A stretch of DNA of 64,000 nt from Candidatus Daviesbacteria bacterium RIFCSPLOWO2_01_FULL_39_23. GTDB lineage: Bacteria; Patescibacteriota; Microgenomatia; Daviesbacterales; UBA10151. Position numbers and translations under genes: made by a program. The notes below the pieces were generated by a model that had not been told where the DNA came from, did no database searches, and was given only the letters and a program-made list of their open reading frames with translations. Shown here piece by piece: positions 7,741 to 64,000 of the stretch (positions are counted from its first letter, which is position 1; each line of letters opens with the position of its first letter). The DNA is taken from assembly GCA_001776935.1 (NCBI GenBank), contig MFDN01000015.1, positions 30,130-94,129 on the forward strand, in the 5' to 3' direction.

Positions 7741-8105
7741 TAGATAAAGGTTAAAATAATCTTACCAAATGCAATGGTCAGTATAAGGCTTACCAGCAGT
7801 GATTGTATAAATAGTATAGTCTTGAAGAAAGACTGCTGTTTATGCAGCTGCCATGAAATAATAAGATTTAAAAACGCTATTGCGCCGATGCTTGCCGGAA
7901 GGACTAAAAATTGCTGATGCGTTGCCAGTTGGCCGTCTCCCCACGGCAGCGAATAAAAAAGAGGCAGCTTAGGAGGTAAAAATTTGGGAATGGCTAAAAG
8001 AGTTATCGTAATCAAAAGGCCTAAAATCAAAGGAGGCAATCCTGCTAAAAGAGGTAATCCGTTGTAGGAGTTTTTTTCAAAAGAAGTATTTTTTAAGTTA
8101 AACAT
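7740..8105 (-). CDS. Small polytopic membrane protein (121 aa), hypothetical
   Basis: Hydrophobic ORF packed between the GT2 and MraY-like genes; translationally coupled. Confidence 0.4.
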   Translation of the reverse strand: MFNLKNTSFEKNSYNGLPLLAGLPPLILGLLITITLLAIPKFLPPKLPLFYSLPWGDGQLATHQQFLVLPASIGAIAFLNLIISWQLHKQQSFFKTILFIQSLLVSLILTIAFGKIILTFI

Positions 8106-8116
8106 AAATAGAATTT

Positions 8117-9892
8117 CTATACTTTTTCCAGCAGTCGCGCCTTGTTTGTAACCCGAAATTCTAATTTTCTGCCAAACATTAAAGAAGTTTGGGCGTCAAT
8201 AGCCGGCAGAGAAGATATAGTTATTAAAATAAGCGGAATCAGCATCCATTGAAAGTATGACCAAATCTTCTTAAATATTGACCAGTCTTTTGGTCTTGGG
8301 GGGGCTGTTTTTTCGTGTACAAAAATAGTTACAAATAGCGCAAAAAAAGTTACTGTTAATATCCAGGAAGAAATAATTGGCAGATTTACAGAGAGTACGG
8401 ATGCTTTAAACTGAGGGTTAATAAGGGGGATTAGCAAGCTGCCGAAAGTAACAAATATGGCCAAAAAACCCCATTTCAAATCACCCCAAATTTTAAATAA
8501 CACTTTATCGGTTTTGTCCCAAAAATTAATTTCTTTAGTGAAATACTGCTTAACAATGTAAGGGATGTGTTCTACCCCATAAGCCCATCTTTTAATTTGG
8601 AAGTATTGGTTTTGGAAGGTTTTCAGTAAGGTTGTATCCTGTACTGCATCTCCTGAGATTGGCAGGAAATGAGGAACAACCTTGTAGTCTCCGTTGAAGT
8701 GGAAATAAGCCTTCCAGTAAAAGCCATTATCATCATTAACTTTATCCGGTAGCCAAAGGCCAATATCGAGCAGGGCTTTCAAAGAAATCGACATAGAAGA
8801 ATAATTCATATATTTATCTGAGCCTACCATTTCTGCCATCTGCCAGAATGAAGTACCGGTCGCCATAAGTCTCATAGGGGTGGGGGTTTGCCAGTAATTG
8901 TTATGGTATAGGAATACCCCTGTAAAAGTTCTTTTATCTCTTTGGTCTTTGGGTAACGATAAGTATTTATGCAATGCTCCTGACAAAAATTGTTTGTGAA
9001 CTACAAAATCAGCATCCAGAGTTGTTACAAATATATCATCAATTTTGATTTTCCTTTTTTGAAGATTTGGCAAAAGATGTTTAATCATCCAGTTTTTATT
9101 TGATCCCTGGCCCGCAACTTCACCCGGTAGATTATACGGATGAATGGTGGTAAAAACGCCTGCAATTCTTTTTTCTATTTTTTTCAGATATGCTTGGGTT
9201 TGTTTAATTTTTTCCGGATCATCTCTTTCCTCAAATCCCACCGCTAAAATTATTTTATCTTTTGGGCAGGCGCTATTTAAAATAGCCTCAATTGTAGGCT
9301 GCAAAATATACAGGGCTTCCTTATAAGTGGGTAGAAGGATTAATTGGTAATATTTTCCCCACTCCTGGGGAAAATCTTTTTGTAACATTTCCTGCCAGTT
9401 TTGATTTTTTGCCCATATCATTTTTTTGTATCCAACGATGATTAAAATAGCAATCCGAAATGCTGTTAAAAGCCAGTATACATCTGCAATGAGTATTAAA
9501 TACGCCACAGCATAAGGGAGGGCAAAAGAGAGCCAGATTGGGGAGGTAAGCGCAAGCCAGGTTAAGCTTCCCGGCAGAATTTCCAAAAATCTTTCAAAAG
9601 CATTTTCGTGTTTTAAGACAAAAGCCTGTTCCTTTTTTTCAAAAAGAACAAATCTTTGTGTCAAAAGATGATGCAATATAATTCCTATTCCTGCTCCAAC
9701 AAAGAAAAACGAGGCCAAAACATTCATCCCGCCGTCCAAAAAAGCTTGTCCCCAAAAACCTATTAAAAAGCCAAAGGCAATAAAAAGTATTCCGATGTAG
9801 CTATAGCGGATTCCCTTGATCGTCTTTCTTAAGACTTCCGAAAGATAGAAAAAAGACAGGAATCCAATAAAAAGAAATAGTAAAATTCGCAT
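8117..9892 (-). CDS. Membrane-embedded processive family-2 glycosyltransferase (cellulose/chitin-synthase-like)
   Basis: N- and C-terminal TM bundles flank a GT2 domain with the D,D (DDPEKIK), DxD (TLDADFV) and Q-x-x-R-W (QIKRW) processive-GT motifs. Confidence 0.75.
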   Translation of the reverse strand: MRILLFLFIGFLSFFYLSEVLRKTIKGIRYSYIGILFIAFGFLIGFWGQAFLDGGMNVLASFFFVGAGIGIILHHLLTQRFVLFEKKEQAFVLKHENAFERFLEILPGSLTWLALTSPIWLSFALPYAVAYLILIADVYWLLTAFRIAILIIVGYKKMIWAKNQNWQEMLQKDFPQEWGKYYQLILLPTYKEALYILQPTIEAILNSACPKDKIILAVGFEERDDPEKIKQTQAYLKKIEKRIAGVFTTIHPYNLPGEVAGQGSNKNWMIKHLLPNLQKRKIKIDDIFVTTLDADFVVHKQFLSGALHKYLSLPKDQRDKRTFTGVFLYHNNYWQTPTPMRLMATGTSFWQMAEMVGSDKYMNYSSMSISLKALLDIGLWLPDKVNDDNGFYWKAYFHFNGDYKVVPHFLPISGDAVQDTTLLKTFQNQYFQIKRWAYGVEHIPYIVKQYFTKEINFWDKTDKVLFKIWGDLKWGFLAIFVTFGSLLIPLINPQFKASVLSVNLPIISSWILTVTFFALFVTIFVHEKTAPPRPKDWSIFKKIWSYFQWMLIPLILITISSLPAIDAQTSLMFGRKLEFRVTNKARLLEKV

Positions 9893-11166
9893 TGGTACCG
9901 TTAAGTATACCTATTTTCAGCTTCCAAAAGCAAATGACGAGGGGCTCAAACACCTACGGGGTGGGCTTTGGTCCAACGGAAGATTTCTCCTCGGAGGTGG
10001 GGCGTTGGTTTCATTTGACATTCGTTTTGGCTCGTAGTAGATTTACGAGCATGGGAACTGAGCAGGATATATTAAGGGAAAGAGCTAAAGGGATTGGCGC
10101 GAAATTAGATAATGTTTCTCCCGTGTTGCTTTATAGAAGATATACACCTCTTGCTCAAGAAATCTCGCAAGGTATTGAGTTAGCAATGCCCCGTAGGGGT
10201 TATTCCCCCAGATATGCATCTTTTCAAGTAACACCGTTTTGTAATTTTGATTGTTCCGGTTGTAATGTTAAAGAAATAAGGGATAGCAGGCAGACACCAC
10301 AATTAACAACAGGCGAAGCTAAAGTGGTGTTGTATAAATTAAAGGAATCAGGCACTCAATGGGTAGATCTCACAGGAGGAGAACCGCTTATTAGAGAAGA
10401 TTTGCTTGAAATTGTTGCATATTCGCATGAAGTGGGTATGCGAACCACGATTAATACAAATGGAGGAATTGCACGAGATAATTTTGATAAAGAAAAGCTT
10501 TATTGGCGCGAATTAGCAGAAGCAGGTTTATTCGGAGCAGTATTTTCTTATGATGGGATAGGCGAAAAGACCGATTCGAGGGTTATCGAGTTGGCAGCAT
10601 TTTTAGTTAACACGCTGCATATTTATGGTGGAGTAAGGACTGTAGTTACTAAAGATAATTTAAAGTTTGTAGAAAATATAGGTACAGCGTGTATGTCGAG
10701 CAATGCTTTTTACGAGCCTGTGCCAGCAGTTGCCTTGGGAGGAGAAATTTCAGCGCTGCCTAATGATAATTTCCATCCACTTGATGCTGATGGCAGGGAT
10801 GAGTACATAGAAATTGTTAATAATCTAAGAAAAGTACGCGGACCTTTTGCAGAATTTCTCCATATTGAAGAAGCTTATTTGAAAGAAGTGGTTATTCCCG
10901 CCACGGAGTGGCATTGCAAAAATCCTGCCAAATATTTGATTTTTGTTAACGCCCTAGGTAGCCTTGCAGTTTGCAATGACAAGTCTTTGCAAGGGGAAGC
11001 ATATTCCTTAATAGGACAAGATAACCCTCTTCTTAAAAGAGAATTTTATGAGGCTGTAAAAAAAGAATCTAAAGAATGCGGAGGATGCAGATGGCTTTGT
11101 AATTGGAGAAGCGAACGAAGACAAACATTGGATCGGTTTAATATAACAGCTGCTGCGATGACCTAA
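9892..11166 (+). CDS. Radical SAM enzyme with C-terminal Cys-rich (SPASM-like) region; true start probably downstream (ATG at 9934 or 10051)
   Basis: CNFDCSGC (CxxxCxxC) radical-SAM cluster motif; C-terminal CGGCRWLC. The ORF start coincides with the divergent GT2 start, so the N-terminal extension is doubtful. Confidence 0.7.
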   Translation: MVPLSIPIFSFQKQMTRGSNTYGVGFGPTEDFSSEVGRWFHLTFVLARSRFTSMGTEQDILRERAKGIGAKLDNVSPVLLYRRYTPLAQEISQGIELAMPRRGYSPRYASFQVTPFCNFDCSGCNVKEIRDSRQTPQLTTGEAKVVLYKLKESGTQWVDLTGGEPLIREDLLEIVAYSHEVGMRTTINTNGGIARDNFDKEKLYWRELAEAGLFGAVFSYDGIGEKTDSRVIELAAFLVNTLHIYGGVRTVVTKDNLKFVENIGTACMSSNAFYEPVPAVALGGEISALPNDNFHPLDADGRDEYIEIVNNLRKVRGPFAEFLHIEEAYLKEVVIPATEWHCKNPAKYLIFVNALGSLAVCNDKSLQGEAYSLIGQDNPLLKREFYEAVKKESKECGGCRWLCNWRSERRQTLDRFNITAAAMT

Positions 11167-12014
11167 ATATTAAATACGCTTTTAGCATTTTGGGTAGTTT
11201 GACTGGCTACTTCCTCAAAAGATACTCCTTTTAAATCAGCAATAAGCTCGGCGATTTCTTTTACAGATGAGGGTTCATTTCTTTGTCCGCGTTTGCTCTG
11301 GGGAGCTAAAAACGGCGAATCAGTTTCTAAAACAATCCTGTCCAAAGGCAATAATTTGACAGCTTCTCGCAAGTATTCATTTTTAGGATAGGTAATGTTG
11401 CCTGCAAAAGAAACTGTTAGATTAGTAGTATGTAGTATGTAGCTAGTATTATGGGAGAGACCGGAATAACAGTGTAGAATAGCAGATTGGTCCCCAAGTA
11501 TTTCAAGCGTATCGTCCCAGGCCTCGGAATTTTCGGGATCTTTTGATCGGTCGTCGCGGCAGTGGATTATTAAAGGAAGATTTAATTTTTTGGCCAAGTC
11601 TACCTGAGCTTGTAAGAGTTTTTTTTGTAAAACCTTAACTTCATCAATTGTTATAGATGGTGGAATAAAGCCGGGATTACTTTCAAAAAAATAATCCAGA
11701 CCACATTCTCCTATACCGACAACTTTTTTTGGGTTAGAAAGATAGATCTGTTCTAACTGCTGCGTATCATTTTTAAGAGTTTCATTAGAGATATACTTTG
11801 CTGCCTCATGCGGATGGATAGCTACGGTGGAGTACCCTTCGACTCCGCTCATGTCAAGTTTTTCGCAAATTTGAAGTGCTTCCCGGCTTTTTTCAATGTC
11901 TACTCCGACATTAATAATGGCAGTAATTCCGGCATCTTTAGCGCGTTGTATTACCAGGTCTAAATCGTTTTGGTAACTTTCCCAATATAAATGTGCATGT
12001 GTATCAATTAACAT
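11163..12014 (-). CDS. tatD: TatD-family metal-dependent DNase/hydrolase
   Basis: MLIDTHAHL start and the overall TatD fold. It contains an in-frame segment derived from the gtagtatgtag hairpin repeat (about nt 11418-11456). Confidence 0.85.
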   Translation of the reverse strand: MLIDTHAHLYWESYQNDLDLVIQRAKDAGITAIINVGVDIEKSREALQICEKLDMSGVEGYSTVAIHPHEAAKYISNETLKNDTQQLEQIYLSNPKKVVGIGECGLDYFFESNPGFIPPSITIDEVKVLQKKLLQAQVDLAKKLNLPLIIHCRDDRSKDPENSEAWDDTLEILGDQSAILHCYSGLSHNTSYILHTTNLTVSFAGNITYPKNEYLREAVKLLPLDRIVLETDSPFLAPQSKRGQRNEPSSVKEIAELIADLKGVSFEEVASQTTQNAKSVFNI

Positions 12015-12615
12015 TTTTTAACCCTAAAATTGTAACAAATCTTCCCTCTTTTTGGTTAGTATCTTCTGCCCTTCGGTGAGAAAAATAATTCATGTTTTCA
12101 TAGGTGCATATTTTGGGATTATCCATATTTTCTTTTAGAATGCCGCAATCAATTAATTGTTTTTCTGCTTCTTGCCAGATATTTAACCGATAATGACAGG
12201 GTCCGATAGATGGACCTAATTTTGCAAGCAGGTTTTTGGGATTAGATCCAAAATGTTTTTTCATTTTTTGAATTGCATTTTTAATAATTCCTTTTTGTAA
12301 ACCTTTAGAGCCGGCATGGATCAAGCCTATTGCTTTATTCTGCGGGTCATATAACCCAACAGGAATGCAATCTGCTACTTTTACCATTAATACAAAATTT
12401 GGATTGTTGCTGATAAGAGCATCGCCTTTGGTATTGGGATCCGGGTGTTCTTTGACAACAACTACTTTATTGCTGTGGATTTGCTCCAGCTCTGCAATCT
12501 CGTCATTGCGAACCCACTTTTCAAAAAACTTTTTCCTGTTTTGCAACACTTCTTGTGTGGGTCCAAAACGAAAATCCATATTTCCATCAGAAACTTGTGA
12601 CGAGATAAAAATCAT
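12004..12615 (-). CDS. YfiH/PgeF (Cu-oxidase_4, DUF152) family protein
   Basis: Conserved HSNKVVVV, GDALISN and ADCIPV segments typical of the YfiH/PgeF family. Confidence 0.8.
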   Translation of the reverse strand: MIFISSQVSDGNMDFRFGPTQEVLQNRKKFFEKWVRNDEIAELEQIHSNKVVVVKEHPDPNTKGDALISNNPNFVLMVKVADCIPVGLYDPQNKAIGLIHAGSKGLQKGIIKNAIQKMKKHFGSNPKNLLAKLGPSIGPCHYRLNIWQEAEKQLIDCGILKENMDNPKICTYENMNYFSHRRAEDTNQKEGRFVTILGLKNVN

Positions 12616-29837: not shown

Positions 29838-30542
29838 TTAGATTATGAATTGGCTGATGGAGGTTTCAAGGTTTTGTTTATCGATGCGCTTTTTGAGTTT
29901 TTTTAACCGGTTTGGATCCAGATTAAACTGTCGGGCAATGTTTTCAAGGCTTTCCTCCTTTTGCAGCAAAATTAAAACCTGATCCATTTTTGTCCAGTAA
30001 TCGTATTCTTCCGGTACTATTTCCTGTAAGCCTAGAAATTTTGCCAGATCAAAAACTTCTGATTTAAAAAGCGAATAAAAAGGCACCAAATGTCCATAAA
30101 ACCCCTCCGGCGGAGGGTTTAAGAGTCTGTCGCTTTTATCAATAGTATTCACTAAGTCTGCTTTCATTTGGTCTGATTGTATTAACAGGTGATAATTTTT
30201 GAAGCGCAGATAAAAATTTTTCAAAGCTTCCGGTCCGCGCAACCGGTAGGCAGCCAGCTCTTTTTGATAAGCAGCAGCCCGGTTAAGGATAAAGGGATTA
30301 AGATTTAAGGTTTTGCAAACCCTGGTCAGCGCATTTGTTTTAGGACTGCCAAAATCCAAAACTATCAATATGGTTTTTTCGCCCAAAGCCTTTTGAAAAA
30401 GCACTCCCGCCGCAAGCGAGGTGATTGCACTGTTTATCTCTACGACTACCTTTGATGATTTCTTACAGGAAGACCGGATGTAGTAAATCAGTTTGTTTAC
30501 CAGCTGCTCATCAATAACTTTTTTGTCATCAGGCAGGTTCAT
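29838..30542 (-). CDS. NadE-like (NAD synthetase / PP-loop ATP pyrophosphatase fold) protein with a degenerate PP-loop
   Basis: Overall NadE-like collinearity (…GFYGHLVPFYSLFKSEVFDLAKFLGL…), but the SGGxDS motif is replaced by INSAITS. Confidence 0.45.
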   Translation of the reverse strand: MNLPDDKKVIDEQLVNKLIYYIRSSCKKSSKVVVEINSAITSLAAGVLFQKALGEKTILIVLDFGSPKTNALTRVCKTLNLNPFILNRAAAYQKELAAYRLRGPEALKNFYLRFKNYHLLIQSDQMKADLVNTIDKSDRLLNPPPEGFYGHLVPFYSLFKSEVFDLAKFLGLQEIVPEEYDYWTKMDQVLILLQKEESLENIARQFNLDPNRLKKLKKRIDKQNLETSISQFII

Positions 30543-48560: not shown

Positions 48561-48597
48561 TTGACAAATATTAGCACTCATGATATGTTACTGCTAA
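48561..48597 (+). promoter_or_regulatory. Sigma70-type promoter (TTGACA-17-TATGTT) overlapping a CIRCE-like HrcA operator (TTAGCACTC-N9-TACTGCTAA)
   Basis: Read directly 2-40 bp upstream of the hrcA ATG. The left half-site is a perfect CIRCE half; the right half matches 7/9. Confidence 0.6.
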
Positions 48598-48598
48598 C

Positions 48599-49327
48599 AT
48601 GACCGAGCTAAGCGAGCGGCAACAGGCGCTTTTAAAAGCAATAATTGAAGAATATATTGAGGCCGCAGAACCTGTAGGTTCAGAGGTTATTGAAAGAAAA
48701 CATACTTTAGGCGTCTCCCCTGCCACCATTAGAATTGAAATGGGACGCTTGACTGATATGGGATACTTGCGTCAGCCTCACACCTCTGCGGGTAGAACCC
48801 CGACTTCCATGGGCATGAAATTTTATATCTCTCAGCTGATGAAAGAAAAGACTCTGCCTGTGACAGCAGAAGTTTCCATTAAAGAGCGGATGATGTCCCA
48901 AAGATATAAGCAGGAAAGGCTGCTAAAAGAAGCTGTTTCTGCTTTAGCGCAAAGGCTGGATATGCTGGGGCTTGCTATTGATGATGCCGGTCAGCTGTAT
49001 TATGCCGGCGCCGCAAACATATTAGACTGGCCGGAGTTTTACGATATTGATGTAGCGCGGTTTGTATTGTCGCTTTTTGATGAGTGTCCACGTCTGCAGG
49101 AAATTATAGGAAGGGCAGTAGGGCCTGACCCGGTTCATATTCTTTTTGGCGAGGATATGGAGTTTGAATATCTGCGTTCAACAAGTTTTGTCTTTACAAA
49201 ATATGACTTGAACGCAGCTAAAGATGGAATCATTGGTGTAATCGGGCCGGCTAGGATGAATTTCCCGCTGGTTTTGCCTTATGTAAAATATGTCAGAGAT
49301 TTACTGGTGGAGGCAGGAAGAAGTTAA
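48599..49327 (+). CDS. hrcA: Heat-inducible transcription repressor HrcA (short form)
   Basis: N-terminal wHTH LSERQQALLKAIIEEYIEAAEPVGS; heads the grpE-dnaK-dnaJ operon. Confidence 0.8.
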   Translation: MTELSERQQALLKAIIEEYIEAAEPVGSEVIERKHTLGVSPATIRIEMGRLTDMGYLRQPHTSAGRTPTSMGMKFYISQLMKEKTLPVTAEVSIKERMMSQRYKQERLLKEAVSALAQRLDMLGLAIDDAGQLYYAGAANILDWPEFYDIDVARFVLSLFDECPRLQEIIGRAVGPDPVHILFGEDMEFEYLRSTSFVFTKYDLNAAKDGIIGVIGPARMNFPLVLPYVKYVRDLLVEAGRS

Positions 49328-49920: not shown

Positions 49921-51882
49921 ATGGCTAAAATTGTAGGAATAGATTTAGGAACAACTAATAGCTGTGTGGCAGTCATGGAAGGCGGAAAACCAAAAGTAAT
50001 CCATTCTGCTGAAGGGGAAAATATTATCCCCTCTGTTGTTAATCCCTTAAAAAATGTGGTCGGCCGCGTTGCCAAACGTCAGGCAATTGTTAACCCCAAA
50101 GAAACAATTTTTTCTATCAAAAGACTGATGGGTCGCAAGTTTAAAGACCCGGAGGTGCAAAGAGATATTAAATGGCTTCCATACACCATCAAAGAAGGAC
50201 GCGAAGGGATGGCAGTTGTGGAAGTGGAGGGTCATGAATACACCCCGCAGGAAATTTCTGCTCAGATTTTACAAAAAATAAAAGCAGATGCAGAATCCTA
50301 TTTAGGAGAAAAAGTCACTGATGTGGTAATTACTGTGCCGGCTTACTTTGATGATGCCCAAAGGCAGGCCACCAAACAGGCAGGAGAGATTGCCGGGTTA
50401 AATGTCCAAAGAATTATTAATGAGCCGACTGCTGCAGCTTTGGCATATGGTTTGGATAAATCCCACGCCCACACCATTGCTGTTTATGATCTGGGAGGCG
50501 GAACCTTTGATATTTCCATTTTGGAGCTTGGAGACGGGGTAATTGAGGTAAAATCCACTAACGGCGATACCCACTTGGGCGGGGATGATTTTGATCAGGT
50601 TATTTTAGACTTTCTGGCAGAGGAGTTTAAAAAAGAACAGGGTATTGATCTAAAAGGCGACCGGCAGGCTTTGCAAAGGTTACGTGATGCAGCGGAAAAA
50701 GCCAAAATTGAATTGTCCTCTACTCAGGAAGCGTCAATTTCTATTCCATTTGTAACTGCAGACTCTTCCGGACCAAAGCATCTGGAGATGAGGCTGTCCC
50801 GGGCAAAACTTGAGGCTATGGTTAAGCCTTTGATTGATAAAACCTTTGAAGCGGTAAAGGCTGCCTTAAAAGATGCTAAACTGGAAGCTTCCAAAATTGA
50901 TGAGGTAGTTTTGGTAGGAGGAATGACAAGGATGCCTTCGGTACAAAAGGCTGTCCAGGATTTCTTTGGCAAAGAACCACACAAAGGCATAAACCCGGAT
51001 GAGGTAGTAGCAGTGGGCGCAGCAATTCAGGGAGGAGTTTTAGGCGGGGAAGTTAAAGATGTTTTGCTTTTGGACGTAACACCTTTAACTTTAGGCATTG
51101 AAACTTTGGGAGGAGTTAGAACCCCTCTTATTTCCAGAAATACCACAATTCCCTCTTCTAAATCAGAAGTTTTCTCAACTGCTGCTGATAACCAAACTTC
51201 GGTGGAAATCAATGTCTTGCAGGGGGAGAGGGAAATGGCTGCGGATAATAAATCCTTAGGTAAATTTATCCTTGATGGGATTCCGCCTTCGCCCCGGGGA
51301 GCGCCGCAGGTAGAGGTGACTTTTGACATTGATGCCAATGGAATTTTAAATGTGACAGCGCATGATAAAGCCACCGGCAAAAAACAAAATATTACCATCA
51401 CCGGTTCCACAGGACTTTCAAAAGATGAAGTAGAAAAGATGACTAAGGAAGCTGAGGCTCATGCTGAAGAAGACAGGAAGAAGAAAGAAGAAGTGGAAAT
51501 CAGGAATCAGGCAGATACTTTGGTCTTTACAGCGGAAAGAACTTTAAAAGATGCCGGAGATAAGGTAGATCCTCAGATAAGAACAGACGTAGAGCAAAAG
51601 CTAAATGATCTAAAAGGCGTTATCCAGACAGCTTCTCCTGAGGATCTGAAGCCTAAGATGGAAGCACTATCAGAAGTTTTGCAAAAAGTGGGAGCTGCTA
51701 TGTATCAACAACAGGGTCAGCAAGGTCCGCAAGCAGCGGGGGAGCAGTCTGCCGGCGAGCAACCTGTCGGTGATGAACAGCCAAAAGAAGAAGCTCCTAA
51801 AACAGAGGACGCGTCATCTGAGACTGGCGCGAAAGAGGAAGCTGTAGAAGGTGAAGTGGTGGAGGAAGAAAAGAAAGACTAG
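49921..51882 (+). CDS. dnaK: Molecular chaperone DnaK (Hsp70)
   Basis: [17 protein letters not shown] and [10 protein letters not shown] signatures; acidic C-terminal tail. Confidence 0.95.
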
Positions 51883-52025: not shown

Positions 52026-52982
52026 ATGAGTAAAAGAGATTATTACGAAATATTGGGGATAACTAAAAGTGCTTCGGAGGCAGAGGTAAAATCTGCTTAC
52101 AGAAAACTGGCCAGGAAGCATCACCCGGATATAGATAAATCAGCCGGAGCAGCTGAAAGGTTTAAGGAACTAGGGGAGGCATACCAGGTTTTATCTGATC
52201 CGCAAAAGAAACAGGCTTATGATCAGTTTGGACACGCGGCTTTTGATAGGTCTGCAGGCTTTGGAGGAGGAGCGCCTGGTGGAGCAGGCGGGTTTAATCC
52301 TTTTGGCGGAGGTGGAGGATTTAAAACTTATTCATGGTCCTCTGGGGGTGGTAATCCCTTCGGTTCCGCTCAGGGCGGGCCGAATATCCAGTTTGATTTT
52401 GGGGGATTTGAGGATCCGTTTGAGCTGTTTGAACAAATTTTCGGCGGAGGAGGTTCGCCTTTTGGGGGATTACACCGCCGGCCGGTCTACCAGCTTAATT
52501 TAACTTTTGAGGAAGCAATCACCGGTGTAACAAAAGAAGTAGAAGTAGAATCAAGGACAGCAGAAGGCAGGGTGCAACGGCGGAGGATGAAAATTAAGGT
52601 TCCGGCAGGAGTGGATAATGGAACAAAAATGAGGTTTGGAGATATGGATATTGTGTTTAATGTTGCCAGAACCTCAAAGTTTATACGTGAAGGGGCTGAT
52701 ATTTTTTCCGAGATTACGGTTAATATTCCACAACTTGTTTTAGGGGATATTTTTGAAGTAGAAACAGTTCAGGAGAAGGTAAAGGTACGGGTTCCGCCAG
52801 GTACTCAGCCAGGTTCTCTGGTTAAATTAAAAGGTAAAGGTGTATCAAGGTTGGGTGCAGCCGGCCGGGGGGATCATTATGTCAGAGTAAACTTAAATGT
52901 GCCTCAGCATCCCTCAAAAGAAGAAAAACAGCTTTATGAAGAATTAAAAAACTTGTCTTCAAAAAAGAAAAGCTGGTTTTAA
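52026..52982 (+). CDS. dnaJ: DnaJ-class co-chaperone (J domain plus G/F region; no CxxCxGxG zinc-finger repeats)
   Basis: DYYEILGI...HPD J-domain, then a Gly/Phe-rich linker. No Cys repeats, so it is a type-B architecture. Confidence 0.85.
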
Positions 52983-58530: not shown

Positions 58531-60849
58531 ATGAATAAAGTAATAATAAAAGAAATTGACCTTAATGGTCGCAAGCTTAAACTCGAAACAGGTAAGTTGG
58601 CTTTACAGGCTGATGCATCTGTTGTTGTCTCATGGGGCGAAACAGTTATTTTGGCAACAGTGGCAACTCAACCTTTAACAGAAGATATCGGATATTTCCC
58701 TCTCTCGGTTGAATATGTAGAAAAGCACTATGCCGGAGGGAGAATCTCATCTTCCCGGTTTATTAAAAGAGAAACAAAACCTACTGACGAAGCAGTCTTA
58801 ACCGGCAGACTGATTGACCGCTCCATCCGCCCCCTTTTTCCAAAAGAGCTTAAAAATCATGAAGTGCAGGTCATTTTAACAGTGCTTTCGATTGACCAGG
58901 CTAATGATCCTGATGTTGTTGGTCTAATCGGAGCTTCAGCCGCCTTATCTATTTCGTCTATTCCGTGGAAAGGGCCGATTGCCTGCGTGAGAGTCGGGGA
59001 GCGGGACGGAAGCTTAATGGTGAATCCGTTAGTGAGCGAGATGGAACATCTTAATATGGATCTTCTGGTTGCCTCGACTAAAGAAAAAGTTGTGATGATT
59101 GAGACTGAAGGTAAAGAGATTGCGGAAGAAATTGTTTTTAATGGGATCAAAGAGGCGCACGCTCAGTCTCAGCAAATAATTGCATTAATAGAAGATTTTA
59201 CCAAAGAAACAGGTAAAGAAAAATTTGCTGTTTCTCATTTGGCAGAAGAAATAGAAGAAGCTTTAATTGCCGAAGTCACCAAGCTGACCAAAGACAGAAT
59301 TGAAAAAGCGCTTTTTGACAGCGAACATGCCTGGCATGAGGCAACCGGGGATCAAATTAAAAAAGAACTGGCCTTGCAGTATGCGGAAACTTTAACCCCT
59401 CAAATTATTTCCGGCATTTTTGACAAAGTAGCCAAAGAAATCCTCCATGAAACAGTTTTAGAAAAAGGCAAAAGAGTGGATGGCCGAGCTATGGATGAAA
59501 TAAGACCTATCGAAATGGAAGTGGGTATTTTGCCAAGAACTCACGGCAGCGCTCTTTTTCAAAGAGGAGATACTCAAGTATTATCGGTTGCCACCTTAGG
59601 TGCACCCTCGCTCAAGCAAACTCTGGACGGCATGGAAGGCGAGAGACAAAAGAGGTTTATGCATCATTATAATATGAGCATTAATCCTTTTTCTGTGGGT
59701 GAGGTAAAAAGATTAGGCGCCCCAAACAGGCGTGATGTTGGTCATGGAGCTTTGGCTGAAAAATCGCTTACAGCTGTTATACCTGCTGAAGACCAGTTTC
59801 CGTATGCTATAAGAATAGTGTCGGAAGTTTTGGCGGCAAATGCTTCCACTTCTATGGCTTCTGTTTGTGCGGCCACTTTGGCTCTTCTTAATGCCGGTGT
59901 CCCCCTGAAAGAACCGGTTGCCGGAATTGCTTTAGGGCTTTTTTCCAATGAAAAGAAATTTCAGGTGGTTACAGATATGCGGGCTGTTGAGGATTTTTAC
60001 GGCGAGATGGATTTTAAAGTTTCAGGAACTAAAAACGGCGTGACTGCTATACAAATGGATACCAAACTTGAGGGGCTCTCATTCGAAATTATTGAAACTG
60101 CCTTGAAAATGGGTAAGGATGCAAGGCTTGAGATTCTGGAAAAAATAAACAAAGCAGTACCTTCGGCAGGTCCTTTGTCCCCGCATGCCCCAAGAGTGGA
60201 AATGCTGCATATCAAGCCGGAAGAAATTGGGCTTTTGATCGGGCCGGGCGGCAAAAATATTAACGGCATTATTGCAAAAACAGGTGCGCAAATTGATATT
60301 GAAGACGACGGAACAGTGATGGTTTCCGGGACCAACTCCGAGGGTGTGGATGCAGCAATTGCAGCAGTTGAAGGAATGTTTAAAACAGTCAATGTTGGAG
60401 ATGAATTCACCGGCAAAGTTGTTCGCCTTGCTCCTTTTGGAGCGTTTGTGGAAATTGCGCCGGGCAAAGATGGACTGGTGCATATTTCTCAAATGGCTCC
60501 GGGACATGTGGAGAGGGCGGAAGATATTGTCAGCGAAGGACAGGAAGTAAAGGTTAGAGTAACTGATGTTACTCCTGAGGGAAAGGTCGGATTATCCATG
60601 CTTTTTGGAGCAGATATAAAACCTGAATCTGAAAGCAGACCCCGTTCTAGTGGCGGATTCAGACCAAGACCTTCTTTTGGAGACTCACCTCGCTTCTCGC
60701 CTCGCGGCGGAGCAGGCAGTCCAAGACCATCAAGCGGAGGTTACAGACCAGGTGGATTTAACAGAGGTGGTTCCAGAAGTTCCGGCGGATTTGACAGGGA
60801 TCGCGGCGGCGGAAGAGATCGGGGCGGCAGAGGCGGCTTTAACCGCTAA
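58531..60849 (+). CDS. pnp: Polynucleotide phosphorylase with KH, S1 and an RGG/Gly-Arg-rich C-terminal tail
   Basis: Two RNase PH domains, KH (GPGGKNI), S1, then GGFRPRP...RGGRGGFNR low-complexity tail. Confidence 0.9.
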   Translation: MNKVIIKEIDLNGRKLKLETGKLALQADASVVVSWGETVILATVATQPLTEDIGYFPLSVEYVEKHYAGGRISSSRFIKRETKPTDEAVLTGRLIDRSIRPLFPKELKNHEVQVILTVLSIDQANDPDVVGLIGASAALSISSIPWKGPIACVRVGERDGSLMVNPLVSEMEHLNMDLLVASTKEKVVMIETEGKEIAEEIVFNGIKEAHAQSQQIIALIEDFTKETGKEKFAVSHLAEEIEEALIAEVTKLTKDRIEKALFDSEHAWHEATGDQIKKELALQYAETLTPQIISGIFDKVAKEILHETVLEKGKRVDGRAMDEIRPIEMEVGILPRTHGSALFQRGDTQVLSVATLGAPSLKQTLDGMEGERQKRFMHHYNMSINPFSVGEVKRLGAPNRRDVGHGALAEKSLTAVIPAEDQFPYAIRIVSEVLAANASTSMASVCAATLALLNAGVPLKEPVAGIALGLFSNEKKFQVVTDMRAVEDFYGEMDFKVSGTKNGVTAIQMDTKLEGLSFEIIETALKMGKDARLEILEKINKAVPSAGPLSPHAPRVEMLHIKPEEIGLLIGPGGKNINGIIAKTGAQIDIEDDGTVMVSGTNSEGVDAAIAAVEGMFKTVNVGDEFTGKVVRLAPFGAFVEIAPGKDGLVHISQMAPGHVERAEDIVSEGQEVKVRVTDVTPEGKVGLSMLFGADIKPESESRPRSSGGFRPRPSFGDSPRFSPRGGAGSPRPSSGGYRPGGFNRGGSRSSGGFDRDRGGGRDRGGRGGFNR

Positions 60850-61017: not shown

Positions 61018-61572
61018 ATGCAAAAAGGGTTTATCAGCCAGCCGATAATTTTTGTTCTGCTTGGTATTTTGGTAATTTTACTGATTGCCGGCGGTGTTTA
61101 TTATTTTATCAGTTCATCTAAATTAAAGCCTCCCTCTTCTCAGGCTCCCCAAGCCTGTACTAATGAGGCTATGGTTTGTCCTGATGGATCAGCTGTAGGT
61201 AGAGTTGGTCCAAACTGTGAATTTGCCCCTTGCCCCGCAGGAAAGACAACAGACAAAATCATAACTCCTTCTAATCCTCCTGATTCCTCTAATCCTTCTA
61301 CAACTCAAGATTATCGGCTAGGTGGGTCGTTTACTGAAAAGGCAACTGAGAAAGAGATAGGATCAATAAGCAGCAGATTTGGATCTGATGTTTCTTCTGT
61401 ATCCTTACTGGAAAGTTTCCCCCTGCAGTTTCAAATCACCAGCCCTTCCCAAACCTCCTGTGAGAAAGTAAGAAAAGCCCTGGCTGGTTTAAAATTTATC
61501 CAAAGTGTTGGTGATTGCCAAAAGGTTGAATCAGGTAACTCTGATCCTAACCAATCCGTAATAAGCAATTAA
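61018..61572 (+). CDS. Secreted/membrane-anchored hypothetical protein (184 aa); N-terminus similar to the next gene
   Basis: MQKGF...LLGILVILLIAGGVYYF signal anchor, Cys-rich and Pro/Ser-rich regions. Confidence 0.5.
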   Translation: MQKGFISQPIIFVLLGILVILLIAGGVYYFISSSKLKPPSSQAPQACTNEAMVCPDGSAVGRVGPNCEFAPCPAGKTTDKIITPSNPPDSSNPSTTQDYRLGGSFTEKATEKEIGSISSRFGSDVSSVSLLESFPLQFQITSPSQTSCEKVRKALAGLKFIQSVGDCQKVESGNSDPNQSVISN

Positions 61573-61577
61573 CTTAA

Positions 61578-62192
61578 ATGAACCAAAAAGGTTTTGTGCT
61601 TTTATACATCCTAATAGGAATTTTGATTCTGATAGGAATAGCTGGTGGAGCATATTATTTATGGGCGCAAGAATACCGTCGAACGCATCCTATTGGTCCA
61701 CTACCAATAGTGGTACCTGAAAATATACCACTATCTAGGAATATTGATGAAACAGCCACCTGGAAAACATACACCAATACAGAATATGGCTTTTCAATCA
61801 AATATCCAGACTTTATTACATATAAAGAAAAACTCTTTAATGACGTGACTTTTTATTACAAAATTGATGATGAAGATATTCCGGAAAATAAATACGATTT
61901 TCCAAGCTATTTTACCAAAGGACTAGGGATTCTATTTAGAACAGGACCAGCTGAACAAGCAGCTAGTTCAGAATTACCAAACAGACCTCAGGAAAAAGTT
62001 CAAATTAACAATAGTGAGGGGGTAAGAATCAAAGATTCACTGTTTAATTATTATCTGTCTTCTAAGGGTAATGACAAATACTCTATAAGGTTAGTTTATC
62101 AAGGTCGTACTGTATACCAAACAAAAGATGAAATAGAAAAAAGATTACGTATTTATCAACAAATTCTTTCTACCTTTAAATTTCTTCCTTAA
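61578..62192 (+). CDS. Secreted protein of the local paralogous family (MNQKGF anchor; WKTYTNTEYGFSIKYP ... ILSTFKFLP)
   Basis: Shares N-terminal anchor, domain-start and C-terminal motifs with the genes at 38781-39860 and 25386-26081. Confidence 0.55.
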   Translation: MNQKGFVLLYILIGILILIGIAGGAYYLWAQEYRRTHPIGPLPIVVPENIPLSRNIDETATWKTYTNTEYGFSIKYPDFITYKEKLFNDVTFYYKIDDEDIPENKYDFPSYFTKGLGILFRTGPAEQAASSELPNRPQEKVQINNSEGVRIKDSLFNYYLSSKGNDKYSIRLVYQGRTVYQTKDEIEKRLRIYQQILSTFKFLP

Positions 62193-62240
62193 AGTATCCT
62201 CTTGGGAAACGATAGTGTTTGAGGTAGAATATACAGTGAA

Positions 62241-63278
62241 ATGGATTCTGCCCGGGCTGTTTTAGAAGAATTAAAAATAAAGGTTTCACAAGCTAGTCTC
62301 CCAAAAGAAGTAGAAGAAAAACTTTTAAATCTTTTAAAATTTACAGCTAGCGGTGCTGAAGCAGAAAGCCTGATTGGTTATGTGAATTTTGTAATTTCTT
62401 TACCCTTTGGGAAAATGTCTCAGGATATTTTGGATATAAACAGAGCTAAGCAAATTTTAGATAAAAATCATTATGGTCTGCAGTCTGTAAAAGACCGGAT
62501 TTTAGAATACTTGGCAGTAATGATTTTAAACAAAGGAAGGCCTGAGCGATCCGGCGACAGCCTGAGAGTCGAAGGACATGCGCCGATTTTGGCATTTATC
62601 GGGCTTGTGGGAACCGGTAAAACTTCTTTGGCGTATTCCATAGCAGAATCTTTGGGAAGACCTTTGGTAAGAATTCCTTTTGGAGGATTGGGAGATCCCT
62701 CTGCTTTGCGCGGGTCATCCCGTATCCGTCCTGATGCAGAACCCGGACAGATTATAAAAGCTGTACAATCTACTAAAGTTTCAAATCCTGTTATACTGTT
62801 GGATGAGATAGACAGGGCGGCAGTTGAGCATAGGGTAGATATTATGGGAGTTTTGGTGGAGCTTTTAGATCCGGCCCAAAATCAGGCTTTTACAGACCAT
62901 TACCTGGATTTTCCTTATGATTTATCGCAGGTTTTATTTATCGCAACCGCCAACAATACCGGAAATATTGCAACAGCAGTCTTAGATCGGCTCGAACCAA
63001 TAGTTATGCCCTCGTATTCAGACGAGGAGAAATTGATTATTGGTAAGAACTATTTATTACCTAAAGCCATTTCCGAAGCAGGCATCAATGGAGATTTATT
63101 AAGTATTGATGAAGCTGTGTGGCCGCAGATACTCAGACCCTTAGGATTTGATAGCGGCATCCGGTCTTTATCCCGAAGTTTGCAATCAATTTGCAGAAAA
63201 ATTGCACGAAAACAAGTTGAAGGAGGAACGGGACCATTTAGGATAACAGGAGATAATTTGCGAGAATACCTTAGTTAG
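62241..63278 (+). CDS. Lon-derived AAA+ ATPase module without N-terminal LAN domain or S16 protease domain
   Basis: Collinear with Lon from ...HYGLQSVKDRILEYLAV... through Walker A (GLVGTGKTS), Walker B (ILLDEID), LDPAQNQAFTDHYLD and DRLEPIVMPSYSDEEK, then stops where the protease domain would begin. The sensor region GHRRTY is replaced by GSSRIR. Confidence 0.65.
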   Translation: MDSARAVLEELKIKVSQASLPKEVEEKLLNLLKFTASGAEAESLIGYVNFVISLPFGKMSQDILDINRAKQILDKNHYGLQSVKDRILEYLAVMILNKGRPERSGDSLRVEGHAPILAFIGLVGTGKTSLAYSIAESLGRPLVRIPFGGLGDPSALRGSSRIRPDAEPGQIIKAVQSTKVSNPVILLDEIDRAAVEHRVDIMGVLVELLDPAQNQAFTDHYLDFPYDLSQVLFIATANNTGNIATAVLDRLEPIVMPSYSDEEKLIIGKNYLLPKAISEAGINGDLLSIDEAVWPQILRPLGFDSGIRSLSRSLQSICRKIARKQVEGGTGPFRITGDNLREYLS

Positions 63279-63363: not shown

Positions 63364-64000
63364 ATGAAGTCGTTTAAACCGGTTTTTAAGCCACAGTTTA
63401 ATAGCAGTCAACCGCTCAAGATTATTCCCCTTGGTGGGGTAGGTGATGTGACCAAAAATATGTATGTTTATGAGTATGGGGACGATATTATTATTGTGGA
63501 TTGCGGGGTGGGATTTCCGGATGAGGCAATGCCGGGAGTGGATTTGGTGATTCCGGATATCTCCTACCTTAGAAGTAAAATAGATAAAATCAGGGGAATT
63601 ATTATTACTCATGGACACGAGGATCATATTGGCGGCTTAGCTTATATCTGGCCGGAACTTCAGGTACCTATTTATACCCAAAAACTTACGGCAGGTTTTA
63701 TACGGGCCAAATTCACCGAACATAATTTGCCAAAAGATAAAATCATTGAAGTTAAATTTGACCAAAAATTAGATTTGGGGAATTTCAAAATTTCTTTTTA
63801 TATGGTATCCCATTCAATTCCTGATTCTATGGGAATAGTTATTAAAACTCCTCAGGGATGCGTGATTCATCAGGCAGATTTTAAGATTGACTGGACACCT
63901 GTCTCAGGTCAGGTCACAGATGTGGGGGCAGTAGCCAAGCTTGGCAGTGAAGGAGTACTGTTGCTTCTTATTGATTGTTTAAGGGTTGAGAAAGCAGGTT
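63364..64000 (+). CDS. rnj: Ribonuclease J (metallo-beta-lactamase/beta-CASP), N-terminal part; continues beyond the window
   Basis: IIPLGGVGDVTKNMYVYEY...IITHGHEDHIGG motif. ORF is open to the window end. Confidence 0.8.
   Translation, partial: MKSFKPVFKPQFNSSQPLKIIPLGGVGDVTKNMYVYEYGDDIIIVDCGVGFPDEAMPGVDLVIPDISYLRSKIDKIRGIIITHGHEDHIGGLAYIWPELQVPIYTQKLTAGFIRAKFTEHNLPKDKIIEVKFDQKLDLGNFKISFYMVSHSIPDSMGIVIKTPQGCVIHQADFKIDWTPVSGQVTDVGAVAKLGSEGVLLLLIDCLRVEKAG

Follow-up and report, generated by a model that had tools for sequence, protein, structure and literature searches.

The window analyzed here is the 64,000-nucleotide (nt) stretch of contig MFDN01000015.1 from Candidatus Daviesbacteria bacterium RIFCSPLOWO2_01_FULL_39_23 (assembly GCA_001776935.1, forward-strand positions 30,130 to 94,129). 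Near its 3' end, the open reading frame (ORF) 62241-63278 encodes a 345-amino-acid (aa) protein that resembles the ATPase motor of the Lon protease. It starts with ATG and terminates with TAG. An in-frame stop is located 7 codons upstream of the ATG, and the 85 nt that separate the TAG from the next gene, which begins at 63364, contain several stops in each of the three frames. Because of these flanking stops, a hidden N- or C-terminal extension or a frameshifted protease domain of the ORF was ruled out. An earlier note, made from the sequence alone, had described the product as a stand-alone Lon-derived AAA+ module without the LAN N-domain and the S16 protease domain, encoded by a gene that is not split at the locus and is followed by RNase J. 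Pfam, TIGR00763, PDB, and structural comparisons agreed with the first of these claims; the stops, together with the profile search described below, supported the second; and the gene at 63364 indeed encodes RNase J. An identical protein occurs on 31 contigs under the entry [quoted passage not shown]. Members of its family are annotated as "Lon protease" in IMG and in the original GenBank record and as "AAA family ATPase" in PGAP. Scans for promoters and terminators yielded counts no better than those obtained with shuffled sequence; one promoter-like site (9/12) is located at 62202-62230.

The earlier note had proposed a Pfam comparison and an inspection of orthologues, the latter of which is presented with the family. 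Pfam assigned an AAA domain (residues 118 to 255) and a Lon_lid domain (279 to 329) to the 345-aa protein, with no other relevant match; neither Lon_C nor LON_substr_bdg was detected in it. The NCBIfam model TIGR00763 ("lon", endopeptidase La) aligned over profile positions 251 to 567 of 795 and scored 315 bits, under its cut-off of 608 bits, and NF008053 scored 240 bits versus a cut-off of 891. Lon structures in PDB matched the protein with E values of about 1e-70 and 38 to 45% identity over its whole length, collinear with Lon residues ~245 to 583. The crystallized AAA+ fragment of E. coli Lon, 6N2I, was nearly coextensive (query 1 to 344 versus chain 4 to 339). The collinearity with the Lon ATPase region that had been claimed for the product was thereby confirmed, as was its end at the protease boundary: the lid comes last, and the protein stops where the protease domain of Lon would start. 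An AlphaFold model computed from a diverse alignment of 149 sequences reached a predicted local distance difference test score (pLDDT) of 91.2 and a predicted template modeling score (pTM) of 0.87. It superimposed on 6N2I with template modeling (TM) scores of 0.86/0.88 and a root mean square deviation of 2.6 Å over 344 columns, and TM scores against Lon AAA+ modules ranged from 0.81 to 0.88. A previous model from 58 close relatives (74 to 86% identity) was discarded; its pLDDT was 62 and its pTM 0.47, and it matched PDB entries only with TM scores of ~0.33 and deviations of ~21 Å.

The 345-aa protein consists of the Lon helical bundle, the AAA+ domain, and the lid only (Table 1). Its N-terminal region is equivalent to the final helices of the Lon N-region, among them the three-helix bundle capping the AAA+ pore, and helices are predicted there in the AlphaFold model at residues 2 to 17, 22 to 34, 39 to 53, 66 to 76, and 81 to 99. 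In this region, Y47 (Lon Y294) is kept and F50 occupies the position of Lon W297 (residue roles from PMC7239648). The lid carries residues that are specific to the family, W294, P300, G302, and D304.

Table 1. Features of the Lon-like gene and its conserved neighbors in the window
Feature	Position	Strand	Basis or remark
Whole gene, 345-aa stand-alone LonA-type AAA+ ATPase	62241..63278	+	Stop codon included; ORF, domain, and structure evidence
N-terminal helical region, aa 1-105	62241..62555	+	Aligned to Lon ~245-350; predicted helices
Large alpha/beta AAA+ subdomain, aa 106-258	62556..63014	+	Pfam AAA 118-255; structural match
Small alpha-helical lid subdomain, aa 259-345	63015..63275	+	Pfam Lon_lid 279-329
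Walker A GLVGTGKTS (Lon GPPGVGKTS)	62601..62627	+	G121, G124, G126, K127, T128 invariant in family
Pore loop 1 RGSSRIRPDAEPG (Lon RGHRRTYIGAMPG)	62709..62747	+	Alignment; Y398/I399 role from PMC7239648
Walker B ILLDEID	62793..62813	+	D188, E189 invariant
Pore loop 2 region AAVEHRVDIMGVLV (Lon SSDWRGDPASALLE)	62817..62858	+	Alignment; Trp431 role from PMC8503904
Pre-sensor-1 beta-hairpin FTDHYLDFPYDLS	62889..62927	+	Alignment to Lon hairpin
Sensor-1 Asn238 (Lon N473)	62952..62954	+	Invariant
Trans-acting arginine finger Arg250 (Lon R484)	62988..62990	+	Invariant
Sensor-2 Arg308 (Lon R542)	63162..63164	+	Invariant
PNPase gene, conserved upstream neighbor, Arg/Gly-rich C-terminal tail	58531..60849	+	
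RNase J gene, 5' part, runs off the window; conserved downstream neighbor	63364..64000	+	

The residues required for nucleotide turnover have been mapped in Y. pestis Lon as Walker A 356 to 364, D423/E424 of Walker B, sensor-1 N473, arginine finger R484, and sensor-2 R542 (PMC7239648). Their counterparts in the Lon-like protein, K127, T128, D188, E189, N238, R250, and R308, were 100% conserved in 240 family sequences. Judged by this alignment, the residues that bind and hydrolyze ATP are all in place and do not vary within the family. The earlier note had considered a regulatory protein or a pseudo-ATPase. The protein may have a regulatory (or remodeling) role, but "pseudo-ATPase" is unlikely because sensor-1, the arginine finger, sensor-2, and both Walker motifs are conserved without exception. 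The pre-sensor-1 hairpin is also kept as in Lon, with Y221 at the position of Lon Y456 and D223 at that of E458, both of which are conserved; the AlphaFold model has strands at 232 to 237 and 251 to 255. Ahead of the P-loop lysine the family has the signature GL[VQA]G where Lon has GPPG, and "YTRE" next to sensor-2 of Lon is replaced by "LGFD".

The loops that line the central channel are a different matter. In Y. pestis Lon, pore loop 1 contains Y398/I399 together with R395/R396, and the hairpin contributes Y456/E458 (PMC7239648); in M. taiwanensis Lon, the corresponding residues are Tyr397 (pore loop 1) and Trp431 (pore loop 2; PMC8503904). In the window protein, Arg-Pro (R163-P164) stands in place of the Tyr-Ile substrate paddle, followed by two acidic residues that are new relative to Lon and conserved in the family, D165 and E167. 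E167 is conserved at 98% in the family, and position 165 is Asp in 82% of the Daviesbacteria-like group and in ~74% of ungapped Dojkabacteria-like sequences. R or K occupies the Lon Y398 position in 93% of the Daviesbacteria-like clade; the wider family is variable there. In pore loop 2, RGDPASA of Lon is changed to RVDIMGV; the D-[IV]-M motif is conserved, and M202 (96%) is specific to the family. The loops along the channel have been remade, and their new form is itself conserved. The substitutions that the earlier note had reported as GSSRIR and HRVDIMGVLVELLDP are real, but their assignment to sensor-1 and the arginine finger was wrong. Aligned to Lon numbering, they fall into pore loop 1, around Y398/I399, and pore loop 2, around W431.

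The same truncation is shared by more than 240 protein clusters of 336 to 507 aa, all with the same ends as the 345-aa protein. The best 120 relatives of the window protein (74 to 86% identity, 336 to 365 aa) contain AAA and Lon_lid only. Searching 1.84 billion 50%-identity representatives added further short members with 42 to 56% identity. One of these, the 42%-identical P0161, was itself used as a query; its best 120 relatives (342 to 507 aa) all have AAA and Lon_lid, and none has Lon_C. The longer members carry additional Q/P-rich low-complexity tails at the N terminus that have no Pfam match. Sources named for the family include Daviesbacteria, Gottesmanbacteria, Levybacteria, Shapirobacteria, Dojkabacteria, Nomurabacteria, and "Patescibacteria group". 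In a neighbor-joining tree of AAA modules, the family formed a clade (bootstrap 79/100) on a long branch, with a mean distance to canonical Lon of 1.08 compared to 0.73 among Lons. Proportions of nonsynonymous differences (pN) between the window gene and two relatives were 0.14 to 0.23, far below those of synonymous differences (pS, 0.76 to 0.87), with synonymous sites saturated. This indicates that the gene is under purifying selection.

A scan of a genome collection returned at least 12 family loci among at least 80 loci listed. Several of them lie in metagenome-assembled genomes titled "uncultured Gammaproteobacteria ... binchicken/co-assembly" (L009 to L012, L014, and L017), and one (L016) is titled "uncultured Pseudomonadales". 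The gene order nusA-infB-rpsO-pnp-X-rnj-ftsK, typical of the candidate phyla radiation (CPR), was found in L009, L011, L012, and L014 and partly in L010 and L016. The taxonomic labels of these genomes are probably wrong. The family is old and vertically inherited in CPR/Patescibacteria and has lost the N-terminal substrate-recognition domain and the S16 domain. Literature searches retrieved no paper on a protease-less Lon family or on Lon in CPR bacteria within the searchable library. The Lon-like ATPase family is a real, conserved, and previously undescribed variant of a well-known machine.

The AAA+ module of LonA from E. coli, Y. pestis, Meiothermus taiwanensis, and human (LONP1) has the same fold as the Lon-like protein, at the identity given above for the PDB matches. 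Shared elements are Walker A/B, sensor-1, the arginine finger, sensor-2, and the pre-sensor-1 hairpin including Y456. In contrast to LonA, the Lon-like protein lacks the LAN N-domain, the long coiled-coil region, and the S16 Ser-Lys protease domain, and it differs in pore loop 1 (Arg-Pro and acidic residues), pore loop 2 ("RVDIM" for "RGDP"), and Walker A ("GLVG" for "GPPG"). Three of the four features that define a Lon protease are missing, namely, the P domain, the N domain, and a score above the equivalog cut-off; the fourth, a Lon-type AAA+ module with a Lon lid, is present. The residue set of an active HCLR-clade enzyme (Walker A/B, sensor-1, trans arginine finger, and sensor-2) is complete, including the pre-sensor-1 hairpin. 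The aromatic-hydrophobic pair in pore loop 1 that marks a translocase was not found in the window protein. 6N2I was made in the laboratory by truncating a protease; the Lon-like protein occurs in nature as a conserved gene product, and its pore loops are rewritten.

Lon architectures in which one module is changed are also known in LonB, LonBA, and the ATP-independent LonC of Meiothermus taiwanensis. LonC has kept its protease, and its ATPase-like domain is defunct; it is the mirror image of the Lon-like protein, in which the ATPase was kept and the protease was lost. ClpX and HslU, of the HCLR clade, are likewise separate AAA+ polypeptides and share the pre-sensor-1 hairpin and the sensor-2 arginine. 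They possess aromatic pore loops (GYVG), peptidase-docking elements, and known peptidase partners, none of which was seen for the Lon-like protein. Lon-type AAA modules in a nonstandard architecture also occur in tandem Lon-AAA proteins such as P0121 (Dependentiae, 1,113 aa) and P0125 (1,075 aa), which differ from the Lon-like protein in having 2 to 4 AAA modules and a retained C-terminal Lon_C. The top-scoring representatives (P0121 to P0128 and similar) were of this kind, with 1,000 to 1,800 aa and 2 to 4 tandem modules, some of them with degenerate Walker motifs or pore loops. Both tandem proteins scanned against Pfam, P0121 and P0125, had one C-terminal Lon_C each. In the current classification of Lon (LonA, LonB, LonC, and LonBA), an A domain precedes a P domain in every chain (PMC9569914), a definition outside which the Lon-like ATPase family lies.

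Taking these observations together, we lean, with some reserve, toward the view that the protein is an active, oligomeric, nonproteolytic remodeling ATPase, a variant of Lon. As the stand-alone form has been kept across many ultra-small CPR/Patescibacteria, the gene is a working one, probably put to a nonproteolytic use. The protein would be a functional, self-standing ATPase that arose from the motor of LonA. An invariant trans-acting arginine finger is to be expected only in an oligomer whose active sites lie between subunits, and the protein should therefore assemble into a Lon-like ring or spiral that hydrolyzes ATP. In the clade of the window protein, a new, conserved, partly acidic loop, [RK]-x-x-P-D-A-E-P-G, has taken the place of the aromatic-hydrophobic paddle. 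The threading of polypeptides into a degradation chamber has probably been given up in the Arg-Pro clade, since both the paddle and the chamber are absent. ATP would then probably be spent on binding and remodeling, releasing, or holding a specific client, in a chaperone-like or regulatory role without proteolysis.

Several points weigh against this interpretation. ATPase activity and oligomeric state are deduced from motif conservation only. The protease and N domains of LonA contribute to hexamer stability, and an isolated AAA+ module may therefore assemble differently. Some divergent family members have F or Y at the Y398 position or one residue earlier, so polypeptides may still be threaded in parts of the family. 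The genome may encode a protease partner elsewhere, and the shared gene order may stem from a large block passed down from an ancestor instead of from a functional link.

In the window, the order of genes is a CIRCE-like site, dnaK, dnaJ, nusA, infB, two unknown ORFs, rpsO, and pnp, followed by two lineage-specific membrane-anchored ORFs, the Lon-like gene, and rnj. The conserved form of this block is dnaJ-nusA-infB-rpsO-pnp-[Lon-like gene]-(udg)-rnj-ftsK, and an HTH_25 gene accompanies ftsK after rnj in family loci. Synteny was counted at 22 loci from divergent family members. pnp was directly upstream of the family gene in 13 of them and within 6 kb in 16, even where PNPase was only 42 to 50% identical; in most of the loci, rnj came next downstream or was separated only by a UDG-family gene. 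In several lineages (L019, L011, and L006) the family gene abuts rnj or lies less than 20 nt away from it. The Lon-like gene is probably coexpressed with PNPase and RNase J in the nusA-infB-rpsO-pnp-X-rnj-ftsK block.

This neighborhood makes a link to RNA decay possible as a hypothesis, in which the ATPase would remodel complexes of PNPase or of RNase J, or its partly acidic pore would hold on to the Arg/Gly-rich PNPase tail. In addition to the adjacency itself, the conserved D165 and E167 in the pore loop and the R/G-rich PNPase tails of 33 to 103 aa in 12 of 13 Microgenomates loci are in line with such a role. However, conservation extends over the entire block, from dnaJ/nusA to ftsK; the proximity of pnp and rnj is therefore not specific to the Lon-like gene and is compatible with simple inheritance. 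Moreover, six loci have no link to pnp, the neighbors there being groES-groEL, M16/M23 peptidase genes, or pfkB and udg. Tail gripping is pure conjecture, and to our knowledge, no Lon-type ATPase acts on the RNA degradosome. We consider a dedicated accessory role in RNA decay unlikely.

The surroundings of the gene showed further features. The PNPase encoded in the window ends in a disordered, Arg/Gly-rich (RGG-like) tail of 75 aa (60622-60849); L090 has a tail of this type as well, whereas L005 and L089 do not. A UDG-superfamily gene lies directly 3' of the family member in L016, L018, L089, L090, and L091, which belong to a Dojkabacteria/Nomurabacteria-like branch. On the Dojkabacteria-like branch, udg stays with the Lon-like gene even where pnp has been lost. 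In L091 it is still attached, with abutting stop and start codons, where pnp and rnj are no longer adjacent. In L015 and L017, the Lon-like gene is located outside the pnp-rnj block and divergent from a GroEL gene (Pfam Cpn60; 7769-9844 and 7887-9880, respectively), which is preceded by a 99- to 114-aa ORF that is probably groES. The M16/M23 peptidase genes surround the Lon-like gene of L002. The two ORFs between pnp and the Lon-like gene in the window (61018-61572 and 61578-62192) have an N-terminal hydrophobic anchor and no Pfam match, and they are absent from this position in related genomes (L003, L009, and others). They were considered as paralogues, and this was rejected as they lack mutual similarity beyond the anchor. 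Farther upstream, a CIRCE-like inverted repeat, TTAGCACTCATGATATGTTACTGCTAA (48571-48597; 2 mismatches, 0.03 expected by chance), directly precedes ORF 48599-49327, ahead of dnaK (49921-51882) and dnaJ (52026-52982). The repeat suggests HrcA-type heat-shock control of the dnaK-dnaJ operon. The scan found no CIRCE site near the Lon-like gene or its relatives.

In the same AAA+ clade, ClpX and HslU are known as separate unfoldases that work for distinct peptidases, ClpP and HslV, respectively, and the Lon-like protein might similarly be the ATPase of a split Lon, unfolding substrates for a separately encoded S16 or other peptidase. Its intact ATPase motifs and pre-sensor-1 hairpin, as well as the aromatic residue in pore loop 1 of some family members, would fit this arrangement. 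To look for the missing half, hidden Markov models (HMMs) of the Lon protease domain and the Lon N-region were built from 45 full-length Lons. They gave 0 matches in six-frame translations of the 64-kb window and 19 family loci (~0.4 Mb in all, covering about 10 kb from the gene in the family loci), whereas in the same run 74 and 69 matches, respectively, were obtained in canonical-Lon loci, which served as the positive control. For the window and these loci, this excludes a gene that is split next to its protease half. In addition, the substrate paddle is Arg-Pro in the clade of the window protein, and the C terminus offers no conserved docking tail because the protein stops at the lid and its last residues are variable. 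A split Lon with a remote partner would therefore seem a rather improbable explanation.

It is also conceivable that the protein is a modulator subunit: a full-length Lon or another AAA+ ring would be encoded elsewhere, and the protein would coassemble with that ring and tune its activity. The ATP-site residues that act between subunits are conserved, including the trans arginine finger, and the tandem proteins with partly degenerate modules suggest that mixed Lon-type rings or stacks are tolerated. A partner Lon is hard to find, though: none of the 68 canonical Lon loci among the matches listed in the genome scan carried a CPR label, which is weak evidence. The nearest identifiable full-length Lons were from Clostridiales, Spirochaetota, Deinococcus, or Veillonellaceae or were phage encoded (P0246/L008 and P0203/L092), not from CPR. 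Together with the long branch that separates the family from canonical Lon, this makes a modulator very unlikely. The phage-like contigs L008 and L092 encode Lons with AAA and Lon_C and without LAN (10001-12220, 739 aa, and 10001-12157, 718 aa, respectively), among genes for portal, terminase, lysozyme, Ku, and SNF2 helicase and many small ORFs. An anti-phage defense ATPase was considered for the Lon-like protein as well and was rejected, as PADLOC models gave only weak matches (E values of 3e-4 or higher), mostly to the P-loop region or to generic AAA. Finally, although two of the three Lon domains are lost and the pore loops altered, a decaying remnant, pseudo-ATPase, or assembly or frameshift artifact is refuted by the identical protein on 31 contigs, the common boundaries of more than 240 clusters, the invariant catalytic residues, the low pN relative to pS, and the stops that flank the ORF in all frames.

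A more far-reaching proposal, which we regard as a long shot, is that the protease-less ATPase is the only Lon homologue in Microgenomates, Dojkabacteria, and related CPR bacteria and was recruited into the pnp-X-rnj RNA-decay module, its partly acidic pore engaging Arg/Gly-rich tails such as that of PNPase. If this were true, an ATP-dependent regulator of RNA turnover would have been made from a protease motor. Reconstructions of CPR proteostasis probably err where they count the family as a protease. The genome-reduced Mycoplasma pneumoniae has only two essential ATP-dependent proteases, and Lon is one of them (PMC7737663). By contrast, nothing but the motor of Lon has been retained in a large group of bacteria that are equally reduced; there it is under strong selection, and its substrate-contacting loops are redesigned. 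The Lon-like ATPase family may be regarded as a natural experiment in which the ATP-dependent remodeling or chaperone activity of Lon has been set apart from proteolysis.

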